Under the pieces are notes generated by a model that had not been told where the DNA came from, did no database searches, and saw only the letters and a list, made by a program, of their open reading frames with translations. From a bacterium (GTDB lineage Bacteria > Patescibacteriota > Minisyncoccia > UBA6257 > GWB1-50-10), in assembly GCA_021814165.1 (NCBI GenBank), contig JAKAIX010000002.1:69371-133370 (forward strand): a DNA stretch of 64,000 nt, written 5' to 3'. The translations under genes were made by a program, and so were the position numbers. Below, one piece after another: positions 4,226 to 58,834 of this stretch. Numbering within the stretch: the stretch's first letter is position 1; each line of letters starts with the position of its first letter.

Positions 4226-7200
4226 CTATAATCTCCTTAATCCTATCCAGATTTTGAGCTCATCGAGCTCGGTATCAAGCTCCGCATCGAACTTCTCCGA
4301 TCGTTTCCACTCGAAGGACGCTGCTCCCGTTTCTTTCCTGATAAGCGCCTCGTTATTTTCAACGATGTGTTTGAATTCTTTGTTTCCTTCCGTCATAAGC
4401 GCGATTCTGTCCTTCGGCTCCAGTTTCGCGTCCTGGCGCAGGCCCTGAATCATCCTTACCAATTCTCTCAACATCCCCTCCTCCCGAAGTTCGTGCGTAA
4501 TTTCCGTATCAAGTATAAACTCCTCCTTCAGATTCTTATCAAACGTGATTTGCTTCACGTTAACCTCATCCTTCAATATATCAAGCAGTTCTTTCTCATC
4601 CTTTCCGCCAAAGGCGGATCCTCCTTTGGAGGAAATTCTCAATTCCCGTAATGGTTGCCTCACCTTAATTCCCAATTCCGCCCGCTTTGCGAGAACGGCA
4701 CTCGCAAGATCGCGAATTTGTTGCATTGCTCCAAGGAGTTTTTTGTCGATAAGCTTTTTGTCCGCCTTCGTCCATTCGGCCGCATGCACCGACGTGTTTT
4801 TCCCCTCAAGCGACAAATAAAGCGCCTCCGCAAAAAACGGCGTGAAGGGGGCCATGAGTTTCGTAATTTCTTCCAGCACGAACTTCAAGGTGGTTGATGC
4901 GGCGAGATAGTCTTTCTGTGTGTCCGGCTTTTGTAAACGCCTTCGCGAGCGGCGGATATACCATCGGGAGACGTCCCCGACGAACTCCTCGATATTTCTC
5001 GCCGCGATTCCCACTTCGTATATATCGAGGTTCTTCGTCGCGACATCGATAGTCTCATGAAGCCGCGCGAGAATCCACCTGTCGAGAATGTTCGAGGATT
5101 TTATATTTGAAGCTTTGGGTTTCGAATTTTTATCCCCGTATGTTTCATAAAATATGAACGAGTTGTAGATGAGCGAGAAAAACTGCCTCGATACTTTCCC
5201 GAGATCGGCTTCATCGAAGCGCTTCGGTTCGCTGGGAGGATTCACGACATAAAAGTACCAACGGACGGCGTCCGCGCCGTACTTCGCAATCATATCCCAC
5301 GGATTCACGGTGTTCCCTTTTGATTTGGACATCTTGGATCCCTCCTTGTCGAGAATGAGTCCTAGAACAATCACGTTCCGGTAGGGTGACTCGAGCCCTA
5401 AGAGTGTCGCAAGTGCAAGGAGTGTATAGAACCACCCTCTTGTCTGATCCATCGCCTCGCAAATATAGTCGGCGGGAAAGTCGATTGATTTCAGGTGCGT
5501 CCTTAGCTTCTGGTCGGAGAGTTTCAATACATGATCCGTGAGCTTCAAGCTGTTGCCGAAGGGGAAGTGCGCCTGGGCGTACGGCATCGCTCCCGAGTCG
5601 AGCCATACGTCAACCACCTCGGGAGTGCGACGCATCGCCGCCTTGCATTTGGGGCATCTGGTCGGGAGCTCGTCGATGTAGGGCTTATGAAGATCAAACG
5701 CGCCCGTCTCATCTCTCGGTACCAAGCGGAATGTTCCGCGTTCTACCTGCCCGTTTTTTACGTAATCTTCGCCGCGCCTATCCTTCTCCGCGACTGCCTC
5801 GACGCTTGTCCAGCCCTGCATGATGTGTTGCAGCATCCAAACGCATGATTCGTGCGTCACGACGAGAATCGTTTTTCCCGCATACTTCTTTTCGAGATCC
5901 CGTACAAAATCAAAGAGCCGCGCGCGAAGGTCCGCAAAGCTCTCGCCGTTCGGCGCTTGTTTTAAAAATTTCTCATGGCGGGAGCTGTAGTAGCCCTTGT
6001 ACGCCTCATACGGTTTTCCGTTAAAATCACCGAAGTCGAATTCGCGAATGCGCGGATCGAAAAGTACGGTTCCGAGAGAGAGTTGTTTCTTGAATATTTC
6101 CGCACTTTCTTTTGTGCGGGTGAGATCGGACGCAAACACGAGATCCACTTTGTCCTTTTTAATTTCCTTCGCCGCCGCCTCGATCTGTTTTCTCCCCTTA
6201 AGTGTGAGATGATACGGCTTCCTCTCGGGCCAACTGATAACCATGTGCTGAATGTTGCTCTCCGCTTCTCCGTGGCGCACGAAGATGTATTTATTGGCGC
6301 TTTTCGGCGCGAGGAGCTCAAGTTCCCTTACGCTTCCCGCGCAGTACCCCTTGCCGCATTTTTCGCACTGCCACACGGGGAGCGGCGTTCCCCAGTAACG
6401 ATCCCGCGACACCGCCCAATCCTTCACCTCGCGAAGCCATTCGCCGAACCTGCCGTCTCGAATCGTTTCCGGGACCCAGTTGATTTTTTTATTTGACGCG
6501 AGAAGTTTCGACCGGAGCTTGCTCATAGCGATAAACCATGAGTCGCGCGCGTAATACAGGAGCGGCGTACCGCACCTCCAGCAGAACGGATAGTCGTGGG
6601 TGTAAAGTTCGGTTTTAAAAAGGAGTTTTCTTTTCTTGAGATATTCAAGAATTTTATTCGTCGTTTCCGTTTCCGTCTTCTCGTCCTTCGATTTCACTGT
6701 CATTCCTTCGAATCCCTTCACGTCTCCCGTGAATCTCCCCCGCTCGTCCACCGTATGATGCTGGGGAAGCCCGATTTTTGTTCCGAGATTGTAATCGTCC
6801 TCGCCGTACATTACCGCGGTATGCACGACGCCCGTACCGTCAGTCGTCGTCACGAAGTCAGCGAGATATATCTTGTAGGAGGTCTCTGATTTAAGCGCCG
6901 GCACGTCGAAGAGCGGCTCATACTCAAGCCCGACCAGGTCGTTCCCGCTTAAAGTGGCAAGTGTCTCGTATTTCGTATCAAATATTTTATCCGCTAAATC
7001 CGCGGCAACAATAAAGTTTTCCCCGGTATTCTTAATACTCACTACTTGATACTTGATGCTCTTCCCTACCGCGAGCGCCACGTTTCCCGGTAACGTCCAC
7101 GGCGTCGTCGTCCAAGAGAGAATATAAGTATCACCGCGAGTTTTTAGTTTCGGGTTTTTAGTTTTTAGTTTAAATTTTATATATACGGAGGTGTCTTGCG

Positions 7201-7798
7201 TCTCCTTATACCCTTGTGCAATTTCATGCGACGAAAGCGCCGTACCGCATCGCGTGCACCACGGCACCACTTTGTGTCCCTTGTAGAGCAACTTCTTCTC
7301 CCATACCTGTTTCAAAATAAACCAGATCGACTCCATGTAGTCGTTCTCGTAAGTCACGTAAGGATGCTTCATGTCGAGCCAGAATCCGATTCGGTTCGTG
7401 AGTTTCTCCCACTCGTCCTGATACTGCCAGACCGATTTTCTGCACTCCTGGTTAAACTTCGAAACGCCATACGACTCGATTTCCTTCTTTGATTTGATGC
7501 CGAGCTTTTTCTCGACCTCGAGCTCCACCGGAAGCCCGTGCGTATCCCATCCCGCGCGGCGCGGCACGTAGAAACCTCTCATCGACTTGTAGCGGAGTAT
7601 GATGTCCTTGAAAGAGCGTGCAAGCACGTGATGGAGGCCCGGTCGGCCGTTCGCCGTCGGAGGACCTTCATAAAACACGAATTTTTTGCTCTTCTTGCGG
7701 GAGGTGAGCGTTTTTTCAAATATTGCGTTTGTGTGCCAGAACTCAAGTACTTTTTCCTCGATCTCCGGAAGCGAAAATTTCGAAAGCCTTCGTAGCAT
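4226..7798 (-). CDS. ileS: Isoleucyl-tRNA synthetase with an inserted histidine-phosphatase (PGAM-superfamily) domain
   Basis: 1190 aa. It has class I aaRS blocks, a CP1 editing motif (TDGTGVVHTAVMYGEDD), DVWLDSGAMPY and KMSKS. Residues about 503-700 carry YIFVRHGEAESN and ILVVTHESCVW motifs between two CxxC pairs. Confidence 0.9.
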   Translation of the reverse strand: MLRRLSKFSLPEIEEKVLEFWHTNAIFEKTLTSRKKSKKFVFYEGPPTANGRPGLHHVLARSFKDIILRYKSMRGFYVPRRAGWDTHGLPVELEVEKKLGIKSKKEIESYGVSKFNQECRKSVWQYQDEWEKLTNRIGFWLDMKHPYVTYENDYMESIWFILKQVWEKKLLYKGHKVVPWCTRCGTALSSHEIAQGYKETQDTSVYIKFKLKTKNPKLKTRGDTYILSWTTTPWTLPGNVALAVGKSIKYQVVSIKNTGENFIVAADLADKIFDTKYETLATLSGNDLVGLEYEPLFDVPALKSETSYKIYLADFVTTTDGTGVVHTAVMYGEDDYNLGTKIGLPQHHTVDERGRFTGDVKGFEGMTVKSKDEKTETETTNKILEYLKKRKLLFKTELYTHDYPFCWRCGTPLLYYARDSWFIAMSKLRSKLLASNKKINWVPETIRDGRFGEWLREVKDWAVSRDRYWGTPLPVWQCEKCGKGYCAGSVRELELLAPKSANKYIFVRHGEAESNIQHMVISWPERKPYHLTLKGRKQIEAAAKEIKKDKVDLVFASDLTRTKESAEIFKKQLSLGTVLFDPRIREFDFGDFNGKPYEAYKGYYSSRHEKFLKQAPNGESFADLRARLFDFVRDLEKKYAGKTILVVTHESCVWMLQHIMQGWTSVEAVAEKDRRGEDYVKNGQVERGTFRLVPRDETGAFDLHKPYIDELPTRCPKCKAAMRRTPEVVDVWLDSGAMPYAQAHFPFGNSLKLTDHVLKLSDQKLRTHLKSIDFPADYICEAMDQTRGWFYTLLALATLLGLESPYRNVIVLGLILDKEGSKMSKSKGNTVNPWDMIAKYGADAVRWYFYVVNPPSEPKRFDEADLGKVSRQFFSLIYNSFIFYETYGDKNSKPKASNIKSSNILDRWILARLHETIDVATKNLDIYEVGIAARNIEEFVGDVSRWYIRRSRRRLQKPDTQKDYLAASTTLKFVLEEITKLMAPFTPFFAEALYLSLEGKNTSVHAAEWTKADKKLIDKKLLGAMQQIRDLASAVLAKRAELGIKVRQPLRELRISSKGGSAFGGKDEKELLDILKDEVNVKQITFDKNLKEEFILDTEITHELREEGMLRELVRMIQGLRQDAKLEPKDRIALMTEGNKEFKHIVENNEALIRKETGAASFEWKRSEKFDAELDTELDELKIWIGLRRL

Positions 7799-9612: not shown

Positions 9613-9659
9613 TTATATTAATCCGTCCGTAATTTTTGATTCCTAATTTGTAATTCCCG

Positions 9660-11429
9660 TTACACGACTTCTGCTTGATAACATGATTCGCAGTATACAA
9701 TCTCATGTCGCTCGGGCGCGTAGCTTGTCTCGAACTCGTTGGGACATTTCTCCGTCCCGTGAGTATGTTTCCCGGTATTTTGATAAACGCCGTTTTCCGA
9801 TTTCGATCCCACACATTGGCACTTTCTATGCCATAACTTAAGTGGATTCTTCCGAAAAAACCGCGCCTGATGTCTGCAGTTGGGACACAGACGCGGAAGG
9901 GGCAGATTCATCCTGCGGTGAAACGTGAGTTCCTCCGGAATGATTTTGAACGCCGTAGTACACTGATGCGCGCACTTCCCTTCGTGCGCGCATCCGACTA
10001 CCTCCTCCAAAATAGAATCCGGAACATCTTTAATGGTCTGCTGCAAATTTTTGCTCTCTTGCGTCACCTTATAGTTCCGCTCCTCCGGCTCCTTCCATAA
10101 AAATCCCTTTCCTGCCGCTTCCTGCTTTGAAAGAGGGAAGTAGTCCTGAGCGACCGTTTCGTTATATGCAAAGGGGCAGAGATCGGAGGAAAAAAATTCA
10201 CCGTATCCGAATCGCCGTCCTCCGGTATCCTGAAACGGTTTTTCTTTCATCTGCAGAACGACTTTTTCTCTTAATTCTTCATATTCCTCTTTCGAATATT
10301 GTTTGTTTAAAATGCAGTATTGCGCTTTCCGCAAACTTACGCACCCGAACAAATTATTCGAGTTCTCGCAGGTATCGCAGTATTCCGCATCAAAATCGTT
10401 CCATACGCAGTATCCGAACTTCACATTACTCGTCGTGATCGCGCTCACAATCTCATACGAAAACTGGCCATCATCAACCGCAACATACCCGTCATAACAG
10501 TTCCTGCTTTTGTTTCCGTGATTCATGAACTTCGAGTCCTCAAGCAATTCGGAATCGTATGCATGAAAGGCGTTTTTCGAGTTGAACACGTAGTCACCCG
10601 AAACGTTGGTGTTTTGAATCCCGTGGATGTGTTTTGATGGGAATCTTTTCCAGAACTCGAACGCGAGAACTCGCGTCGAGTCGATACCGTCCTGGGAGTC
10701 CAGTCTCATGGACTCCATTTCTTTCAAATAGTCCTCTTTCGAGTACTGCTTATTGAAAATCTGATAGCGCGCGTTCCGCAGGTTGGCACATCCGATACAG
10801 TCCTGGCAGTTCGCACAGTTCTTACAAAAGAAGAGGTCTTGGGAATCATTGCAATCCTCCGAAAAGCAGATCTTGTAGCACTTCCGGCACGTGACCGAAT
10901 CGTAAGAAAGTTCGCACTCGTGGCAATTCAGGAGATCCGCACTGTTGCGGCAATCGAAGGTTGAATACGAGTACATCAGATCCTCATTGTGGTCGCTTAC
11001 AAAGATAAGGTAACAATTTTTGTTGAACGCAGCGCCGTTCGCATAATCGCTCTTCACATTCTGAAATGCGAACGCATAAAGACGCGGAACTTTAAATTGC
11101 AGTTTCCTGAACTGTTCGAGAAAGGGCCTCGAGAAATCGACATCAACACCGAAAGAAAGCGGATCCCACTTATCCGAGTGGTAACACTCCCGGCAGTACA
11201 CTGTGTAGGGCTTGTCGGGAGAGTATATGGAAATTATGGTGTTGCCGCAGAGATCGCATTTTCTCCGGTACAAACTGCGTTCACAGCGCCAGATGAGGCG
11301 CCGCTGCAATCTGCATTCCGAACACCACGTGGGAGGAGGAACCTGTAGTTTCTCATAAAATGAAAAATCATCCGGTTCGATCGTGAACGATTGCTTGCAA
11401 TTCTGACAGATTTTGGATTCCGTATTCAT
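9660..11429 (-). CDS. Cysteine-rich multi-zinc-ribbon protein, paralog 1 of 3 (family not recognised)
   Basis: The true start is probably the internal Met (MNTESKICQNCKQSFTIEPDDF...) at 11429, not the track start at 11495. It has an N-terminal double CxxC ribbon (PPPTWCxxCRLQRR), two internal C-x2-C-x2-C...FGC...YCIxNKQYSKEEYE modules, and a C-terminal Cys/His cluster ending YCESCYQAEVV. Confidence 0.7.
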   Translation of the reverse strand: MNTESKICQNCKQSFTIEPDDFSFYEKLQVPPPTWCSECRLQRRLIWRCERSLYRRKCDLCGNTIISIYSPDKPYTVYCRECYHSDKWDPLSFGVDVDFSRPFLEQFRKLQFKVPRLYAFAFQNVKSDYANGAAFNKNCYLIFVSDHNEDLMYSYSTFDCRNSADLLNCHECELSYDSVTCRKCYKICFSEDCNDSQDLFFCKNCANCQDCIGCANLRNARYQIFNKQYSKEDYLKEMESMRLDSQDGIDSTRVLAFEFWKRFPSKHIHGIQNTNVSGDYVFNSKNAFHAYDSELLEDSKFMNHGNKSRNCYDGYVAVDDGQFSYEIVSAITTSNVKFGYCVWNDFDAEYCDTCENSNNLFGCVSLRKAQYCILNKQYSKEEYEELREKVVLQMKEKPFQDTGGRRFGYGEFFSSDLCPFAYNETVAQDYFPLSKQEAAGKGFLWKEPEERNYKVTQESKNLQQTIKDVPDSILEEVVGCAHEGKCAHQCTTAFKIIPEELTFHRRMNLPLPRLCPNCRHQARFFRKNPLKLWHRKCQCVGSKSENGVYQNTGKHTHGTEKCPNEFETSYAPERHEIVYCESCYQAEVV

Positions 11430-11498
11430 AATTCCCGTTACACGACTTCTGCTTGACCCTCCTTCGCTTTTCGAGCTACGAAGGGCAAGTAGCACCGC
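11430..11498 (-). other. 69-bp spacer between the tandem paralogs containing a fossil copy of a paralog 3' end (...QAEVV-stop + CGGGAATT)
   Basis: The 28-nt block TCAAGCAGAAGTCGTGTAACGGGAATTA at 9651-9678 (the C-terminal codons plus stop of paralog 1) is repeated at 11430-11456, directly upstream of the paralog 1 ATG. Confidence 0.6.
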
Positions 11499-14794: not shown

Positions 14795-14801
14795 TAGTTT
14801 G

Positions 14802-15139
14802 TGGAGATGGCCGGAGTTGAACCGGCATCCAGTAGCTTCCTTACAAACCTTCTACAAGCTTAGTCCGTTAAGACGATGTTTGATTCTTTGTTTAACGAGC
14901 GTATCCGAATCGCTATACACTCACGAGTCCCATGTATAACACCAGTGATCCTCTATGGAACCTGAAGGACTGATGCCCCTCCTTCGCATAAAGCTACGGG
15001 AGGGGATCCCACACTACGCGTAAGCGAGCGCGGGAACTGCGTTTCTATTGGCAGTTAAAATTGAGTGAAGAGTTTCACGAGATTTTCAGCTCGACCTGCG
15101 GTTTGCAAGGGAATGATACTGTCGAAGCCTAGCATCCCC
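14802..15139 (-). ncRNA. ssrA: tmRNA (SsrA), about 338 nt
   Basis: Minus-strand 5' GGGGATGCTAGGCTTCGAC and 3' ...GCCGGTTCAACTCCGGCCATCTCCA form a 7-bp acceptor stem with one G-U pair, and the T-arm is GCCGG-TTCAACT-CCGGC. A candidate tag ORF GCC AAT AGA AAC GCA GTT CCC GCG CTC GCT TAC GCG TAG encodes ANRNAVPALAYA. smpB is adjacent. Confidence 0.7.
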
Positions 15140-15186: not shown

Positions 15187-15636
15187 CTAATATGAACGTT
15201 TCTCGGCTCGTTTTATTTCACGCTCCGTCTCACGTTTCTTGATGGTTTCCCGTTTGTCATATTGTTTCTTGCCTCTTGCGAGCCCGAGCTCTATCTTCAC
15301 CCGAGCGCCTTTATTATACAATCTAACAGGCACCAGCGTCAACCCGCTCTTCGTTTTTCCTATAAGATAGGAGATTTCCTTTTTATTAAGAAGAAGTTTC
15401 TTCGTGCGCATCGAGTCGTAGTTTGCGGGCGCGTTTTTCGGTTGGAATGACGGCACGTCCATCCCCACGAGGAATAACTCCCCGCCGCGGACGATCGCGT
15501 GCGCTCCCGCAAGGTTTACGTGCCCCGTTTTGATGGATTTTGCCTCGTGTCCGGATAATACGATGCCGGCCTCGAATTTTTCGAGGATCTCATAGTCGAA
15601 TCTCGCTTTTTTGTTTTCCTTTACACCTTTCCGCAT
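15187..15636 (-). CDS. smpB: SsrA-binding protein SmpB
   Basis: 149 aa with an SmpB-like pattern (KKARFDYEILEKFEAGIVLSGHEAKSIK...LVPVRLY..GK.KVELALA.GKK.YDKRE) and a basic C-terminal tail. Confidence 0.85.
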   Translation of the reverse strand: MRKGVKENKKARFDYEILEKFEAGIVLSGHEAKSIKTGHVNLAGAHAIVRGGELFLVGMDVPSFQPKNAPANYDSMRTKKLLLNKKEISYLIGKTKSGLTLVPVRLYNKGARVKIELGLARGKKQYDKRETIKKRETEREIKRAEKRSY

Positions 15637-15824
15637 AACACTCTCACATTATCACACATAAAGTGAGGTGAAAAATAGGGGGTGAAAAAAGAGAAACTCA
15701 AATAAAGACAGGGAAAATTTCTAATCTATGGTTTTAAAGAGGCAGCGAAGCGACGACGTGAAATTCTGGCCATCTTTATAGAAAACCAAGGGGGTTTCTG
15801 CTTTTTGGTTAGTATTGGATTGCT

Positions 15825-15853
15825 TTGACTTTCGATTTATTTTCGACTATAAT
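15825..15853 (+). promoter_or_regulatory. Consensus sigma70-type promoter TTGACT-N17-TATAAT whose spacer is the 17-nt motif TTTCGATTTATTTTCGA (candidate LexA operator)
   Basis: TTGACT is at 15825-15830 and TATAAT at 15848-15853. The 17-mer at 15830-15846 is identical to 17316-17332, just upstream of the lexA ATG. Confidence 0.5.
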
Positions 15854-15922
15854 GAAAACACAACATGAAGGCAAAAACTCGGATGTGGATAACTAACAAA
15901 GGCCGGAAGACAAAGTAAAAAT

Positions 15923-16692: not shown

Positions 16693-17307
16693 CTAGTCAG
16701 CCTTACGTTTAATCACCCCGAGCACTACTCCCTGAATCGCGAATCCGGTGTTGCCGCTTCGCACGATGATCGGTTCCATTTTTTTGTTCGCGGGCTGTAA
16801 TCTTACCTGTCCCCTTTCTTTGAAGAAGGTTTTGAGTGTCGCCTCGTGATTGTCGATGAGTGCAACGACTTTCTCTCCGTTGTCCGCGGTCGACTGATGA
16901 CGCACCAGAACGATGTCGCCATCGTTGATGTTCTCGTCGATCATGCTGTTGCCGACGACCTTCAACGCGTAAATGTTTCCCAGAGAACGCGGAAGCCGGC
17001 TTCTCGGAATCGCGATAATTTCTTTCGTTTCCATCGCCTCTATCGGCATACCGGCCGCGATCGTGCCGAGTAAAGGAATTTGAATCATCTGTTCCGATTG
17101 GAAAACATCGATGCCGCGCGGCTGGTTTTCTTCCCTGCTCAGATATCCCAGACCTTCCAACGCTTTTACGTGGTGATGGGCCGTCGAAACGGAAGACAAA
17201 CCGAGATGTTTTTTTATCTCCTCGAGAGACGGAGCATACCCCTTCTTCTTCTTATAGCCCCCTATGAAATCCAGGGCTTCTTTCTGTTTTTTGGTGATTG
17301 GCGACAT
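16693..17307 (-). CDS. lexA: LexA repressor (winged-HTH + S24 peptidase)
   Basis: 204 aa with an N-terminal HTH, an Ala-Gly cleavage-site region (GTIAAGMPIEA), a VVGNSM serine motif and a catalytic Lys region (LKTFFKERGQVRL). Confidence 0.8.
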   Translation of the reverse strand: MSPITKKQKEALDFIGGYKKKKGYAPSLEEIKKHLGLSSVSTAHHHVKALEGLGYLSREENQPRGIDVFQSEQMIQIPLLGTIAAGMPIEAMETKEIIAIPRSRLPRSLGNIYALKVVGNSMIDENINDGDIVLVRHQSTADNGEKVVALIDNHEATLKTFFKERGQVRLQPANKKMEPIIVRSGNTGFAIQGVVLGVIKRKAD

Positions 17308-17315
17308 GGTTATGT

Positions 17316-17332
17316 TTTCGATTTATTTTCGA
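17316..17332 (-). promoter_or_regulatory. 17-nt motif TTTCGATTTATTTTCGA (TTCGA-N6-TTCGA direct repeat, 11-bp period) immediately upstream of the lexA start; candidate LexA box
   Basis: Identical to 15830-15846. It lies between a TTGACT-N16-TAGAAT promoter-like pair and the lexA ATG on the minus strand. Confidence 0.45.
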
Positions 17333-17409
17333 TTCTACTACAAGCACGCGGTAAGTCAAAGGGTGCGGTTATCCACACCCCCACAGTAAAATCCCAAATA
17401 ACTTCATAG

Positions 17410-19981: not shown

Positions 19982-21208
19982 TTGTTTTCGCTTCAGCAGC
20001 TTTTTTACAACAAAAAAGGGGCTCGTATGAAGCTGAAACACACATATCGAAACGTCATCCTCTATAAACGCTTCGTGTTGTTCAATGAACCCTTGTTCCG
20101 TGGAGCCGTTATTATTACCTCACTCCAGAAGCTTGCGCACATGTCGCTATCCGATATTTATTTCATGGAATCGGCGGTGGTAGTGCTCTGGGCGCTGTTC
20201 GACATACCCGCGGGAGCGCTCGCGGACCTCATCGGAAGAAAGAAAACCATTATTATCGGGCAGATATTCCTTCTCGGAAGCTTTATCGGGTTTGCGCTCA
20301 TGACATCCCCTCTTACCGCGTGGATCTCCGATATTCTTTGGGCAATTGGAATCTCGTTCCAGTCGGGGGCGGACAAGGCACTTCTTCAGAACTCTCTGAA
20401 CGAGTGTAAAATGGGGAATAAGTTCAAAGAAATCGAGGGGCGCGCGATGGGATCGCGATATCTCCTTATTGCTTTTTGCTCGCTTGTGGTGGGACCGCTT
20501 GCGGAAATTAATCTGAGAATCCCGCTTATCCTGTCCGTTCCCGGATTTCTCATTTCGTTCGTCACCTCTTGGTCATTCCAAGAGCCCGCTCGAACGAAAG
20601 GATATAACCCGCGGGCGCAACTAAGAGCGGTAAGGGAGGGGGTTGCCTACTCGGTCAAGAAAAAAGAGATACGGTGGATCGTCGGATTTTGTGCGCTCCT
20701 CATGGCAAGCGCAAAGGTCTGGTTTTTCACTTACAATCCTTATTTCGAGAGAGTCGGAATCGAACTGAAGTATTACGGTCTTATCTTTTTTCTCCTTAAC
20801 CTCATCGCGTGGCTATCAAGCCGCTATGCGAAGGAAATTGAGCGGCGGCTCGGAGAGCGATCGTGCGTCACGACAATGATACTCTCGACAGGCGTTCCCA
20901 TGCTCCTTATGGGACTTTTTCCCGTACAGCCGGCCGCCTATCTTGTGCTCACGCAAAACGTCGTACGCGGATTTATAACGCCGTTCATCGGGGATTTCGT
21001 AAACAAACACATCGAGTCGGAGCATATCCGTGCAACGGTGCTTTCGGTGAGATCTTCCTCGACGAATGCGGCAACTATCGCGGCACTCGCATGGTTCGGA
21101 GTTATGACGACCCGACTCGATCTCCTCGAATCACTCACCGCGCTTGGAGTGGCGGTTCTCGCGTTGGGAAAAATAAGCTTCAGAAGTTACGAGAGGATGA
21201 CAAAGTAA
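19982..21208 (+). CDS. MFS-type transporter
   Basis: About 12 predicted hydrophobic segments with an MFS-like loop pattern. A terminator follows at 21213-21244. Confidence 0.5.
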   Translation: MFSLQQLFYNKKGARMKLKHTYRNVILYKRFVLFNEPLFRGAVIITSLQKLAHMSLSDIYFMESAVVVLWALFDIPAGALADLIGRKKTIIIGQIFLLGSFIGFALMTSPLTAWISDILWAIGISFQSGADKALLQNSLNECKMGNKFKEIEGRAMGSRYLLIAFCSLVVGPLAEINLRIPLILSVPGFLISFVTSWSFQEPARTKGYNPRAQLRAVREGVAYSVKKKEIRWIVGFCALLMASAKVWFFTYNPYFERVGIELKYYGLIFFLLNLIAWLSSRYAKEIERRLGERSCVTTMILSTGVPMLLMGLFPVQPAAYLVLTQNVVRGFITPFIGDFVNKHIESEHIRATVLSVRSSSTNAATIAALAWFGVMTTRLDLLESLTALGVAVLALGKISFRSYERMTK

Positions 21209-21212
21209 CGAC

Positions 21213-21244
21213 AAAAGCGGCGCGCTTCACGACGCCGCTTTTTA
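21213..21244. terminator. Bidirectional terminator AAAAGCGGCG-CGCTTCACGA-CGCCGCTTTT
   Basis: Lies between the convergent MFS gene and Cys-rich paralog 3. It is followed by the palindrome ATCGAGGCCGGGCCTCGAT at 21265-21283. Confidence 0.65.
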
Positions 21245-21312
21245 TTCTCAAATTTTCAACAACCCTTCCAATCTATCGAGGCCGGGCCTCGATAATTTTG
21301 GGGATAACTTTT

Positions 21313-23058
21313 TTATACCACCTCTTTTTGATAGCACTCCTCGCAATACACGACCTCGGGACGATCGGGAGCATACGGCGTTTCGAACTCATTAGGACAC
21401 CTCTCCGGATGTCCGTGATCCGAACCATTGCACATGCATGAACGCCGCCAAAGACGGATGTTTAAGGGATTCCTGTATTCTATTCTTTCATAATGCCGGC
21501 AGTTGGGGCACAACCACGGGAGAGGGAGATGCATCCTCCGATAGAACTGGAGTTCCGACTCCAGAATCCTGAACGCGGTGGTACACTGATGTTCGCACGA
21601 CCCGTTGTGCGCGCACCTTATCGTTTCCTCCGTTATCGAATCGGAAACATTTTTGATGTCGCGAGGTAATTGTCCGGGATCTTTCGTAACGCGGTACTCT
21701 CGCGGAACCGAAACTCCCCAGCGGAAACCAGATTCGATGGCTTTTTCCTTTGTCACGGGATAATATTCCTGCGCGATCGATTCGTTGTACGCGAAGGGAG
21801 AAAACTCCGCCGGAAAGAACTCTCCGAAGGCGTACGTCCTCCCCTTTTCGTCTTTGTACGGCATTGCGTTCATGTGCTCGATGATTTTCGGAATCATCGA
21901 CTCATATTCCTCCTTCGAGTACGGCTTGTTTAGAATATGGTATTGCTTTTTCCGCAACCCCGCGCACCCGAAAATATTCTGCGAAGTTCTGCAGTAATCG
22001 CAGTAGGTTGCGTCACGGATGTCCTCAAAGGTGTTCGTGGAAAACCTGATGAGCGAGTCCCTATATCCCACGTTCACGCCGTCGTACAGGAGTTCCGCTC
22101 CGTTTCCTACGCCATAGAGATCCGCCGAGTCCTTCGCCTCAATGACTCTGATGCCGTAACTCACGTTTTCCAGATCTTCGCCGGTAAAACAATATCTGGC
22201 GTTCTTCGCGTTGATAAGGTTGTTCCCGGTGGCGTTCACGGTTTTGAACAAGCTCGCAAAACGGTGAATTGCTTTCGTCCTCAACGCCTCATACTCGGGG
22301 ATAAGCGCCTGAAACGCCACGCGATCTCCCAAACCCAATTCGCTCATTCTTCGTTCATACTCCTCCTTGGAAAGTTCCTGATTCCTGAACACATATGATT
22401 TGTTCCGCAGGTTTGAACTCATAAAACAATTCCTGCATCCCCTGCAATCGTAGAGAAAAGCGGAGTCAAGACATTCCCTGCAATCGGTCAGATACACGGC
22501 GTTGGCACACCGTTGACAGTCCTGTGATCCATAACAGAGTTGGGAGTCGTACAGGTAGGTTGAGTCCATACTGTCCTGACAGCGCGTGGTTCCGTGGCAG
22601 TAGGAAATATTCTCCGAGTATATGACTGACGAGGAAAGATATACGTTCTTGCTTATCCAGGTGTAGTTGGTGTAGGGCGAGCCCTCATTTTGATAGGCCT
22701 CGAGCGCCATTTTGGGAACCCTCTTGAGAAGCTCCGCGAACTGCACGAAAAACGGTTTACCGAAGTCGTAATCCGTTCCGTACTCCGTCGGATCCCATTT
22801 GTCCGACCACCAACACTCGTTGCAGTATACGATTATGTCCGCGTCGGGATGATACATGGTTATAATGTCCTTTTCACACAGGCCGCACTTCCTCTTAAAA
22901 AGCGCCCGCTCCTGACGGAATACCATCCTTCGCTTCATTCTGCACTCCGGACACCACGTGGGCGGCGGCACTTTTATGTGTTCATAAAACGTAAAATCGT
23001 CCTGCTCGATAACAAATCCTTGCTTGCAGTTTTGACACGTTCTCGATCCCATCTGCAT
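21313..23058 (-). CDS. Cysteine-rich multi-zinc-ribbon protein, paralog 3 of 3
   Basis: 581 aa. It starts MQMGSRTCQNCKQGFVIEQDDFTFYEHIKVPPPTWCPECRMKRR, has the same internal modules, and ends YCEECYQKEVV. Confidence 0.7.
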   Translation of the reverse strand: MQMGSRTCQNCKQGFVIEQDDFTFYEHIKVPPPTWCPECRMKRRMVFRQERALFKRKCGLCEKDIITMYHPDADIIVYCNECWWSDKWDPTEYGTDYDFGKPFFVQFAELLKRVPKMALEAYQNEGSPYTNYTWISKNVYLSSSVIYSENISYCHGTTRCQDSMDSTYLYDSQLCYGSQDCQRCANAVYLTDCRECLDSAFLYDCRGCRNCFMSSNLRNKSYVFRNQELSKEEYERRMSELGLGDRVAFQALIPEYEALRTKAIHRFASLFKTVNATGNNLINAKNARYCFTGEDLENVSYGIRVIEAKDSADLYGVGNGAELLYDGVNVGYRDSLIRFSTNTFEDIRDATYCDYCRTSQNIFGCAGLRKKQYHILNKPYSKEEYESMIPKIIEHMNAMPYKDEKGRTYAFGEFFPAEFSPFAYNESIAQEYYPVTKEKAIESGFRWGVSVPREYRVTKDPGQLPRDIKNVSDSITEETIRCAHNGSCEHQCTTAFRILESELQFYRRMHLPLPWLCPNCRHYERIEYRNPLNIRLWRRSCMCNGSDHGHPERCPNEFETPYAPDRPEVVYCEECYQKEVV

Positions 23059-23091
23059 GCACTTATTATACTATCTAACGACCTTCAATGT

Positions 23092-23147
23092 TTTGAGGCC
23101 CGGCTTCCCCCGCCTGCGCAGGCAGGTCTCGAAGGCCGGGCCTCAAA
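23092..23147. repeat. GC-rich nested palindromic repeat, family A (TTGAGGCCCGGCTTCC-CCCGCCTGCGCAGGCAGG-TCTCGAAGGCCGGGCCTCAA)
   Basis: Same architecture as 2786-2837. It lies between the divergent starts of paralog 3 and the GDPD gene. Confidence 0.7.
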
Positions 23148-23167
23148 TTCTACGCTATAATAAACGC

Positions 23168-23935
23168 ATGAAATGCCGAATCATCAGCCACCGCGGGCTT
23201 TGCAGAAAACATTTCTGGAATTTGCGGAAAGGAGAAAATACGATTGAGGCCTTCAGAGAGGGGTTGGAAGCGCTCGAAAAAATGGGGGTAAAAAAATCGA
23301 TCGAGTTCGACGTTCGCGCTACGAAAGACGCGATTCTTGTGGTGCGTCACAACGAGCGGCTGAGCGGCATCGCCGGCGCGGCGGGATTCGTGCGAGACTA
23401 CACGGCGGAAGAACTTCAGAAACTGGATGCGGGATATGGGAGAAAAATTCCCCTTCTTGAGGAAGTACTCGACGAATTCAAAAACGACGATGTTGAATTT
23501 AACATAGAACTCAAGGAAAGCGGGGTTATTAAGCGGGTGAAAGAGGCGGTGATGGCGCGCGGTCTGGGAAAGAGAACAATCGTTTCCGCGTTTGACGATA
23601 ATGACAACGATCCGCGTTATAAATTTCCCGAACGATTCTCGAGATGGGACGAACTTTCGCAGGCAGGCACCGAGGTGCATTTCGCGCTTCTCGCGACGGG
23701 GTGGAAAATAAGAAGTTTGGGTGGTGAAAAAGCATTCGTGAGAAAAGCCATCGAGTACGGGGCTTCATCGGTTAATCCGGAACGCGCCGCCGCGACAAAA
23801 GCACTCATCGATGCGGCGCACGACGCGGGACTCGAGGTGCGAATATGGGTGGTGAACGGAAAAAGAGAATATAGAAAGTTTGAACAACTCGGGGTTGATG
23901 CGGTTTTCTCCGATAATCCGTTCTTCCTGCAATAA
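23168..23935 (+). CDS. Glycerophosphodiester phosphodiesterase
   Basis: Starts MKCRIISHRG...ENTIEAFREG...EFDVRATKDAILVVRHNERL (GDPD family). I chose the start at 23168 over the longer track ORF that runs through the palindrome. Confidence 0.7.
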   Translation: MKCRIISHRGLCRKHFWNLRKGENTIEAFREGLEALEKMGVKKSIEFDVRATKDAILVVRHNERLSGIAGAAGFVRDYTAEELQKLDAGYGRKIPLLEEVLDEFKNDDVEFNIELKESGVIKRVKEAVMARGLGKRTIVSAFDDNDNDPRYKFPERFSRWDELSQAGTEVHFALLATGWKIRSLGGEKAFVRKAIEYGASSVNPERAAATKALIDAAHDAGLEVRIWVVNGKREYRKFEQLGVDAVFSDNPFFLQ

Positions 23936-34580: not shown

Positions 34581-34774
34581 TGTGCCCTCGATAGGAAGCA
34601 AACGTCGCTTCGCTCCTTGAGAACCCTCGGTTCTCAACGGGCTTCGCCCTGCTCTCCTACACGGGAGACCAGCGTGTTCTCCCTGCCTGCGCAGGCGGGC
34701 CGACCCCACTCCTGTTCGATTCCTTTGAGAAAAAATCAAAAATCCCCAGGACAAGCCCGGGGACTTTTGATTTG
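34581..34774. other. Structured GC-rich segment bounded by a 17-nt imperfect direct repeat of the tRNA-Arg 3' end (TGTGCCCTCGAYAGGAA at 34581-34597 and 34773-34789)
   Basis: Contains the hairpin TTGAGAACC-CTC-GGTTCTCAA, a family-A core variant CCTGCCTGCGCAGGCGGG, and a terminator-like hairpin ATCAAAAGTCCCC...GGGGATTTTTGAT. Confidence 0.5.
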
Positions 34775-58740: not shown

Positions 58741-58834
58741 GCGCCATACTCCTTCGAACGAGGGTAAGGCTTGGCCAAGCCTGCCTGCGCAGGCAGGCGG
58801 CCCGGAGCGCCCGAGTCGAGAAGGAGTATGGCGC
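58741..58834. mobile_element. MITE-like element, family B copy 2, with perfect 14-bp terminal inverted repeats (GCGCCATACTCCTT / AAGGAGTATGGCGC) and an embedded family-A core CCTGCCTGCGCAGGCAGG
   Basis: Shares the CGAACGAGGGTAAG and GGAGCGCCCGAGT blocks with 17410-17490. Confidence 0.6.

Follow-up and report, generated by a model that had tools for sequence, protein, structure and literature searches.

A cysteine-rich paralogue family of Patescibacteria that in relatives is linked to genes for VirD4-like ATPases and Hsp70 chaperones

Introduction

Several proteins that work together with Hsp70 chaperones depend on zinc, among them the Cys-rich domain of DnaJ, the redox-switch holdase Hsp33 and the escort protein Hep1/Zim17. 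Paralogous proteins are also known as partners of VirD4 ATPases of type IV secretion systems (T4SS): the Bep effector paralogues of Bartonella are encoded beside virD4, and the T4SS effectors of Xanthomonas have a conserved VirD4-interacting C-terminal domain in common. Treble-clef and zinc-ribbon modules are commonly nucleic-acid binders. Here we analysed a stretch of 64,000 nucleotides (nt) of contig JAKAIX010000002.1 from a patescibacterium (the window), with the focus on a gene for a Cys-rich protein of 581 amino acids (aa). An earlier note on this DNA had described the gene as a third, dispersed copy of a paralogue family that is represented by a tandem pair elsewhere in the window. We found that the family is large and old, and that in relatives its genes lie among genes for VirD4-like ATPases and the Hsp70 system.

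A recent survey of T4SS in Patescibacteria (2025) counted 5,713 VirD4-like genes in 2,918 genomes, of which only 148 were located near virB4, and the authors state that exaptation of VirD4-like genes to another function 'cannot be ruled out' (PMC12102498). Furthermore, small CxxC-x17-CxxC proteins of Methanosarcina mazei were shown by inductively coupled plasma mass spectrometry to bind zinc (PMC12704099). In the literature searched, we found nothing specific on the family described here or on its linkage to ATPase and Hsp70 genes.

Results

The 581-aa protein belongs to a set of at least six paralogues that diverged long ago

The family profile matched the 581-aa protein with 957 bits, covering positions 1–581, and public assemblies hold the identical protein (P0001) on contigs of up to 775,138 bp. 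The product contains 32 Cys and 12 His and lacks a transmembrane segment. It is indeed a third paralogue, being colinear with both tandem open reading frames (ORFs) at 44% and 48% identity. The end-to-end alignment of the three window paralogues shows the same module order throughout and more than 200 invariant columns, and BLASTP among them gave E-values of ~1e-175 or lower, far beyond chance. For the second tandem gene, the ATG at 11429 (589 aa) is most likely the start rather than the GTG at 11495 of the ORF, because the homologue alignment and the public gene call agree on it.

The surroundings of the gene are as the earlier note had described them. The distance to the tandem pair is 8.0 kb, the convergent neighbour on the + strand (19982–21208) matches the major facilitator superfamily (MFS) model PF07690, and a palindrome is found 34 nt upstream of the start codon. 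Likewise, both tandem genes have the block TAACGGGAATT directly after their stop codon, and the 581-aa gene lacks it there. The tandem genes also share a 47-nt stretch (9632–9678 and 11410–11456), made up of the final 19 bases of the coding sequence and the 28 bases that follow, which is 89% identical between the two; the tandem proteins overall are only ~49% identical. This could be the result of local gene conversion or a conserved 3′ or intercistronic element.

The note had expected more copies in the genome, and in total we found three further full-length paralogues (580, 597 and 593 aa), arranged in tandem in a second cluster just upstream of infA-rpsM-rpsK-rpsD-rpoA-rplQ. All six are recorded on one contig of 775,138 bp, so that the copy number in this Paceibacteria-type genome of ~775 kb is at least six. 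Pairwise identities among the paralogues are 43–51%. A set of only three copies, which would have spoken against the note, was thus not what we found; conservation as orthologues across relatives, named there as well, does apply in part, as each paralogue lineage is old.

Protein architecture and comparison with known folds

The family has a fixed-length, metalloprotein-like architecture of the cytoplasmic type, in which a double Cys4 ribbon is followed by two β-solenoid units, an acidic linker and a second double Cys4 ribbon (Table 1). All eight Cys of the N-terminal module are invariant in an alignment of 52 sequences, and residues 7–44 gave a weak match to zf_Tbcl (Pfam). In the C-terminal module, the double ribbon comprises C488/C492/C517/C520 and C541/C543/C554/C572/C575, with C482, H484, H548 and H550 in addition, and residues 553–579 weakly matched zf_Tbcl_2 (Pfam) and TIGR04272 (NCBIfam). 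CxxC pairs ~17–24 residues apart (C8/C11...C36/C39, C58/C61...C79/C82, C517/C520 and C572/C575) are invariant in the 52 sequences, and at least 16 ribbon Cys are invariant in all. Judged by these patterns, each protein probably has at least four zinc sites. A comparison with hhalign identified the N- and C-terminal modules as homologues (99.2%, E = 1.2e-19).

Between the modules, Ser or Cys recurs at each sixth position over residues ~119–226, and a test for six-residue periodicity was positive. Unit 1 carries a Cx8CxxCxxC set (C196/C205/C208/C211) that is kept in 87–98% of the members. The two solenoid units are homologous as well, residues ~130–242 matching ~278–393 (hhalign 99.6%, E = 6.8e-24). 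The module order A-B-B′-A′ is palindromic and therefore not the product of one tandem duplication. The linker contains near-invariant columns and has a median isoelectric point (pI) of 4.7 over the alignment, whereas the terminal modules are mildly basic (median pI 7.5 and 8.1); the family medians are pI 6.3 and 5.9% Cys. None of 190 family members contains a hydrophobic 19-mer, and the location of the family is probably cytoplasmic. AlphaFold2 (AF2) predicted the full-length protein with pLDDT 81.8 and pTM 0.81 and the core with pLDDT 84.5 and pTM 0.82; in the core model, pLDDT reached 93–98 for about residues 180–260. These models are confident.

Searches with Pfam and NCBIfam on the three window paralogues and with Pfam on the 52 members returned only sub-threshold zinc-ribbon matches, and the 370-aa core had no match in Pfam, NCBIfam or the PDB. 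The scores of the 581-aa protein were below the curated cutoffs of zf_Tbcl (16.7 vs 24 bits), zf_Tbcl_2 (12.2 vs 27) and TIGR04272 (10.5 vs 36). At E <= 0.1, zf_Tbcl was matched in 36 and zf_Tbcl_2 in 22 of the 52 members (best E 2.4e-6 and 1.1e-6, respectively). Ribbons of the treble-clef type are very probably present in a diverged form. Against PDB sequences, the family profile gave only chance-level matches to LIM/CRP zinc fingers (E >= 0.32).

Foldseek searches of the PDB with the full-length and core models gave nothing significant (best E = 0.0096, TM ~0.1, root-mean-square deviation (rmsd) ~18 Å), and the sub-threshold matches were all left-handed β-helix enzymes (LpxD, GlmU, PglB and γ-carbonic anhydrase). 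In BFVD, only local zinc-ribbon and hexapeptide matches were retrieved, none of them significant. We considered whether the family might be an enzyme of the acyltransferase or γ-carbonic anhydrase type on such a core, or an Fe-S or redox switch using Cx8CxxCxxC. The kind of structure retrieved, the six-residue period and the retention of the four Cys of unit 1 would fit this. However, no structural match was significant, neither Hexapep nor any other enzyme family was found at E <= 0.1 in the 52 members (Pfam), and the conserved residues recur at matching places in the two solenoid units, as structural repeat positions would. Moreover, six to ten old paralogues of one enzyme would be unusual for a genome of <1 Mb. 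An enzymatic or redox role is therefore improbable in our view.

Distribution and evolution of the family

Clustering at 90% identity gave at least 7,051 family clusters; with a threshold of 50% identity, 5,365 clusters matched at E <= 1e-3 and 2,193 of these at E <= 1e-30. Members are nearly always 550–610 aa long and are annotated as 'hypothetical' or 'zinc-binding domain-containing'. Named sources are Jorgensen-, Lipton-, Brenner-, Nomura-, Giovannoni-, Staskawicz-, Sungii- and Niyogibacteria as well as 'Paceibacterota/Minisyncoccia', and the named matches thus belong to Patescibacteria (candidate phyla radiation, CPR) of the Parcubacteria/Paceibacteria type. One locus with four family genes and both types of the ATPase described below (L013; JAMPXW010000002.1, 267,744 bp) comes from a metagenome-assembled genome (MAG) labelled 'Burkholderiales', and one family protein (P0110) is filed under 'Woesearchaeota'. 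Both records are probably binning or labelling errors and not occurrences outside Patescibacteria.

At least two copies were present in 54 of 82 loci of <=22 kb, nearly always in tandem and on one strand, with a maximum of 10 per locus. The nearest relative of 151 of the 155 paralogues from multi-copy loci was found in another genome, and identity within a locus did not exceed 61% (median 43%). Because the nearest relatives lie elsewhere and identity within loci is low, the arrays are old sets of distinct lineages; recent amplification and concerted evolution were rejected on these grounds. When the genome of the window was compared with a Brennerbacteria relative, the best family pairs were 45–58% identical, similar to ribosomal protein S13 (66%) and IF1 (46%) of the same two genomes, which indicates that the family evolves at a housekeeping-like rate.

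The closest homologue of the 581-aa protein (69.5% identity) is encoded by the first of five family genes in locus L163, bracketed by a short ATPase gene and a long one. A 58% homologue in a Brennerbacteria MAG (L165) lies within nine consecutive family genes with 4-bp overlaps, which suggest translational coupling and a fixed stoichiometry. This row (L165, 3867–18792) starts with a short form of 352 aa. Both ATPase types flank these nearest homologues. The term 'dispersed' used in the earlier note thus holds for the gene in the window, but it describes a lineage-specific state. Since the closest homologues are found in arrays together with the partner genes and no partners lie near the six copies in the genome of the window (86 kb covered), the dispersed position appears to be derived.

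Family genes of relatives are linked to VirD4-like ATPases

To find recurrent neighbours, we clustered the flanking ORFs of 81 loci sampled by the family. The dominant neighbour was a P-loop ATPase, which was present in 30 of these loci compared to ~3.7 expected under a crude null model. The ATPase genes are on the same strand as the family in 41 of 42 cases, and a median of 72 bp separates them from the nearest family gene. Their products score above the Pfam cutoffs for TrwB_AAD_bind (31–50 bits; cutoff 20.5), T4SS-DNA_transf (28–32; 20.1) and TraG-D_C (24–28; 22), have the nucleotide-binding and all-alpha domains of the coupling-protein type, and retrieved TrwB as the only PDB sequence match. 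They are far below the NCBIfam equivalog cutoffs, and the same is true for weak matches to CedD and TraD. No hydrophobic 19-mer that could act as a membrane anchor was found in 41 of the 42 ATPases.

Two types of this ATPase can be distinguished. The long type (~650–756 aa) has its Walker A motif at residue 42, and its genes are separated from the next family gene by a median of 7 bp; in the short type (~482–512 aa) the motif is found at residue 64. A CxxC-x17-CxxC ribbon follows the ATPase domain in each of the 14 long ATPases. It is of the same type as ribbon B in the terminal modules of the family and scores 48 bits for TIGR04272 (cutoff 36) and 54 bits for zf_Tbcl_2. Behind the ribbon, long ATPases end in a low-complexity tail of 170–270 residues rich in Lys, Pro and Glu that looks disordered (for instance residues 481–754 in L032). 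In a reciprocal sample of 80 metagenome loci picked by the short ATPase, family genes were present in 58.

Hsp70 genes and membrane-anchored proteins in the same loci

The family and ATPase genes are often interleaved with chaperone genes. A recurrent order on one strand is grpE–family–family–dnaK–long ATPase–family–short ATPase–dnaJ–family, the chaperones being confirmed by Pfam. Among the 81 loci, dnaK was found in 18 (~1.9 expected) and dnaJ in 12 (1.9 expected), strong enrichments like that of the ATPase, again under a crude null. In the sample picked by the ATPase, dnaJ stood directly downstream of the short ATPase gene in 30 of 80 loci, and compact dnaK–long ATPase–family–short ATPase–dnaJ units occurred repeatedly.

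A second context was seen in 23 of these 80 loci, where a gene for a DUF8128 protein is followed by those for a ~175-aa protein and the short ATPase and then by a family array; the same trio is present in L163 (6447–9818) and L165 (1–2514). The DUF8128 label was taken from the precomputed matches of the sequence collection. The DUF8128 proteins (~440 aa) have an N-terminal hydrophobic segment and the ~175-aa proteins an N-terminal membrane helix, and both are thus anchored. In our searches of Pfam, NCBIfam and the PDB, neither gave a match.

The family could also be the cargo of these ATPases. In that case, the paralogues would be substrates or effectors that are recognised via their ribbon modules, kept competent by DnaK/DnaJ and exported by a T4SS or another envelope channel into a host cell. 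The arrays indeed encode paralogues without signal peptide next to coupling-protein-like ATPases, much like the Bep genes, and a shared recognition domain would have a precedent in the Xanthomonas effectors. The missing membrane domain could be supplied by DUF8128 and the ~175-aa protein, and thousands of VirD4-like genes in Patescibacteria (5,713, of which 148 near virB4) are as yet unexplained (PMC12102498). On the other hand, the ATPases themselves have no transmembrane segment, with Walker A already at residue 42 or 64. The slow evolution, similar to that of S13 and IF1, and the ancient orthogroups are unlike typical host-targeted effectors, and a rigid solenoid with at least four zinc sites would be a poor substrate for unfolding. 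Moreover, the copies in the genome of the window are not near any ATPase (86 kb). We regard a role as translocated substrate as unlikely.

A role in nucleic-acid handling was weighed on the same loci. Here, the ribbons would bind DNA or RNA and the ATPases would translocate nucleic acid, for instance in DNA uptake or processing or in RNA or ribosome quality control. Such binding is frequent among treble-clef and zinc-ribbon modules, the terminal modules are mildly basic, and the ATPases match the TrwB 'DNA-binding domain' and T4SS-DNA_transf above the cutoffs and CedD weakly. Translation genes are also frequent neighbours (the arginyl-tRNA synthetase gene, a class-I aminoacyl-tRNA synthetase gene and the infA-rpsM operon), but these are expected by chance in a genome of 0.8 Mb. 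In addition, the whole protein has a pI of ~6.3 and an acidic linker, no helix-turn-helix, nuclease or helicase domain was found with Pfam and NCBIfam, and the CedD and TraD matches were far below the family cutoffs. This role seems to us to have a rather small chance of being the right one.

Flanking sequences, promoter and palindromic repeat

The spacer between the convergent MFS and family genes is 104 bp long and contains two hairpins (Table 1), and a terminator-like site was called once in it, at 21287–21303. The hairpins are probably terminators for the two genes. On the other side, the TATAAT box is probably the promoter of a leaderless or near-leaderless transcript. A second, divergent TATAAT-N6-ATG start is formed by a box at 23156–23161 (+) and the probable start of the GDPD gene at 23168. 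An exact TATAAT ending 6–8 nt before the start was found for at least five window genes (starts 18046, 23058, 34001, 41190 and 42434), and a Shine-Dalgarno-like motif was present in only 5 of 46 window genes, which suggests frequent leaderless mRNAs in the source organism.

The palindrome lies between these two divergent starts and has a folding energy of -39 to -40 kcal/mol (z = -4.7 to -5.9). Its core CCTGCGCAGG occurs in four copies in the window, compared to 0.05 expected, and each copy is intergenic. The copy at 2783–2838 is followed by a T-run and may be a terminator, possibly of the RNase J gene; one copy lies ~70 nt from a tRNA gene. An association of the family with these palindromes, which the earlier note had raised, was not confirmed, as only one of the four palindromes adjoins a family gene and only one of the six family genes has one. 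Furthermore, the second family cluster (locus L001) does not contain the core. The palindrome is thus a dispersed hairpin similar to repetitive extragenic palindromic (REP) elements and a mere neighbour, without a family-specific tie.

We also asked whether the family could be repeat-associated, mobile, phage-derived or part of a defence system, and spread by or linked to the GC-rich palindromes. Apart from the palindrome next to the gene start, the multi-copy nature of the family and two weak matches of the three window paralogues to PHROGs of unknown function (best E = 3e-4) could be taken to point this way. However, there is no general adjacency to palindromes, no relatives were found on 2.9 million viral contigs (IMG/VR), PADLOC models gave 0 matches with the three window paralogues at E <= 1, and recent duplicates are missing, the maximum identity within a locus being 61%. 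Arrays in the loci examined were not flanked by transposase or integrase genes. Taken together, the palindrome, viral-contig, PADLOC and identity evidence effectively refutes such an origin.

Other features of the window

A class-I aminoacyl-tRNA synthetase of 1,190 aa (tRNA-synt_1, Anticodon_1 and DUF5915) is encoded at 4226–7798 (-). A His_Phos_1 domain (E = 2e-32) is inserted at residues 505–662, within its catalytic domain, and similarly long relatives (1,129–1,186 aa) are found in loci L055, L063 and L075. Furthermore, the window contains a 67-nt direct repeat (15795–15861 and 17281–17347; 70% identity, common core TTTTCGATTTATTTTCGA). One copy overlaps the start of the LexA gene (16693–17307, -), and the other lies ~160 bp upstream of an SmpB-like gene (15187–15636, -) near the tmRNA gene (14799–15139). 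The repeat may be a shared operator.

Table 1. Positions of the family genes, the modules of the 581-aa protein and flanking elements in the window
Feature	Position	Strand	Remarks
Family gene, 581 aa, intact	21313–23058	-	ORF with ATG start; protein MQMGSRTCQNCKQGF...YCEECYQKEVV
N-terminal module, residues 1–105	22744–23058	-	Cys4 ribbons C8/C11/C36/C39 and C58/C61/C79/C82
Solenoid unit 1, residues 119–262	22273–22704	-	six-residue period, then 'LRNKxY..N..SKEEYE' helix
Solenoid unit 2, residues 263–400	21859–22272	-	diverged duplicate of unit 1; ends with 'GLRKKQY..LNK.YSKEEYE' and helix
Acidic linker, residues 401–476	21631–21858	-	consensus 'MPY.D.KGR.Y.YGEFFP.E.SPFAYNET.AQ.Y.P..K..A...G..W'
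C-terminal module, residues 477–581	21316–21630	-	second double ribbon; conserved end YCE.CYQ.EVV
Tandem paralogue, 595 aa	11499–13286	-	family profile 857 bits; public protein P0273, same 775-kb contig
Tandem paralogue, 589 aa	9660–11429	-	family profile 807 bits; public protein P0274, 589 aa
3′-flank block TAACGGGAATT	9652–9662 and 11430–11440	-	after the stop codons of the tandem genes
Convergent intergenic region, two hairpins	21214–21297		folds with z = -3.8 and -5.3
Hairpin 1	~21214–21246		A/T runs on its flanks
Hairpin 2	21274–21294		TATCGAGGCCGGGCCTCGATA
TATAAT box	23065–23070	-	6 nt upstream of ATG; Shine-Dalgarno absent; consensus match only
GC-rich imperfect palindrome, ~56 nt	23092–23147		core CCTGCCTGCGCAGGCAGG; arms 23092–23117 and 23122–23147; in 109-bp divergent intergenic region
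Palindrome copies	2783–2838, 23092–23147, 34682–34705, 58767–58803		common 18-nt core

Discussion

From the genomic context only, we tentatively favour, at somewhat less than even likelihood, that the family members are cytoplasmic, zinc-bound scaffolds or adaptors in a protein-handling pathway linked to the ATPases and Hsp70. The protein would be a zinc-stabilised, rod-like scaffold or adaptor with the soluble, hexamer-type VirD4/TrwB-like P-loop ATPases and DnaK-DnaJ-GrpE as partners. Because the long ATPase bears the same CxxC-x17-CxxC ribbon, we propose that the terminal ribbon modules may serve as docking elements, while the solenoids would form an extended binding surface. The old paralogues could differ in their specificities for clients or partners, or they could co-assemble. 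In the genome of the window, the 581-aa copy would have moved out of the ancestral array and be expressed alone from its putative TATAAT-N6-ATG promoter.

Several points weigh against this proposal. The mechanism is drawn wholly from gene order in relatives, and in the 86 kb seen of the genome of the window, none of the six copies has an ATPase gene, dnaK, dnaJ or grpE nearby. Likewise, a search of the window and of loci L001 and L003 for the ATPase, dnaK, DUF8128 and the ~175-aa protein gave no match. Because the partners are absent there, the linkage to ATPase and Hsp70 genes is not obligatory. Given the phylogenetic relatedness of the sampled genomes and the crude null model, the significance of the enrichments overstates their independence. 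A search of 2.17 Mb of loci for the CIRCE/HrcA operator gave no match, which lends no support to heat-shock control, and the membrane-anchored context fits a role in membrane translocation at least as well. Finally, the metal content is deduced from Cys patterns, with the possibility that the Cx8CxxCxxC set of unit 1 holds something besides zinc, and the charge analysis, with an overall pI of ~6.3, gives no hint of the ligand class.

Going further, the family, the two soluble VirD4-like ATPases, DUF8128, the ~175-aa protein and DnaK/DnaJ/GrpE could together form an undescribed, Paceibacteria-specific, ATP-driven machine that would assemble, remodel or export paralogous zinc-solenoid proteins. 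We consider this possible but doubtful. If true, it would account for the many thousands of coupling-protein genes that in Patescibacteria are 'orphans' outside the T4SS. In any case, the linkage to the ATPases is a testable lead and offers a candidate partner for many orphan VirD4-like ATPases, and the insertion of the family in the grpE-dnaK-dnaJ operon points to an unrecognised Hsp70 partner system in a major bacterial radiation. The six paralogues take up ~10.6 kb (~1.4%) of their genome. Patescibacteria have genomes of <1 Mb and have shed most non-essential genes, yet relatives keep nine or ten copies in a row.

Comparison with known systems

Like the zinc-dependent Hsp70 partners DnaJ, Hsp33 and Hep1/Zim17, which are Cys4-zinc proteins acting with DnaK/DnaJ/GrpE, the family carries Cys4 ribbons, and its genes are interleaved with grpE, dnaK and dnaJ. 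However, no similarity in sequence or fold was detected, the family has neither a J-domain nor CxxCxGxG, and the link is one of gene order.

The four terminal ribbons have the Cys spacing of zf_Tbcl (PF13451), zf_Tbcl_2 (PF23477) and TIGR04272. The known ribbons of this type are small single-domain proteins or short repeats, whereas the family pairs them in a module of ~80 residues, one copy of which stands at each end of a 580-aa protein; the 370-aa core is unrelated to these ribbons. With left-handed β-helix proteins (LpxA/LpxD, GlmU, PglD and γ-carbonic anhydrases), the core shares the six-residue period, in which small residues occupy fixed positions, and, in the predicted model, a short-strand solenoid geometry; these were also the sole kind of PDB structure retrieved. 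In contrast to them, the core has many Cys and Ser at inward positions and contains the unit twice, with a helix inserted, and a catalytic signature is absent. Moreover, no significant superposition (E >= 0.0096) and no Hexapep match was obtained.

The palindrome resembles REP-like dispersed extragenic palindromes in being a GC-rich, intergenic, imperfect palindrome of ~56 nt in four copies with a strong hairpin. It differs in that we saw no evidence here of a RAYT-type transposase and no family-specific placement.

The gene order in relatives resembles that of VirD4/TrwB/TraD coupling proteins with paralogous substrates, as in virD4-bep of Bartonella, since ATPases above the Pfam cutoffs are encoded directly upstream of tandem paralogues that lack signal peptides. 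Here, however, the ATPases are soluble, without the N-terminal membrane domain, and below the equivalog cutoffs. They are encoded inside an Hsp70 operon and, according to the literature, rarely near virB4, and the family paralogues evolve slowly. The parts are familiar (zinc ribbons, a β-solenoid, a VirD4-like ATPase and Hsp70), whereas the protein core and the gene system as a whole in our view fall outside the known kinds.

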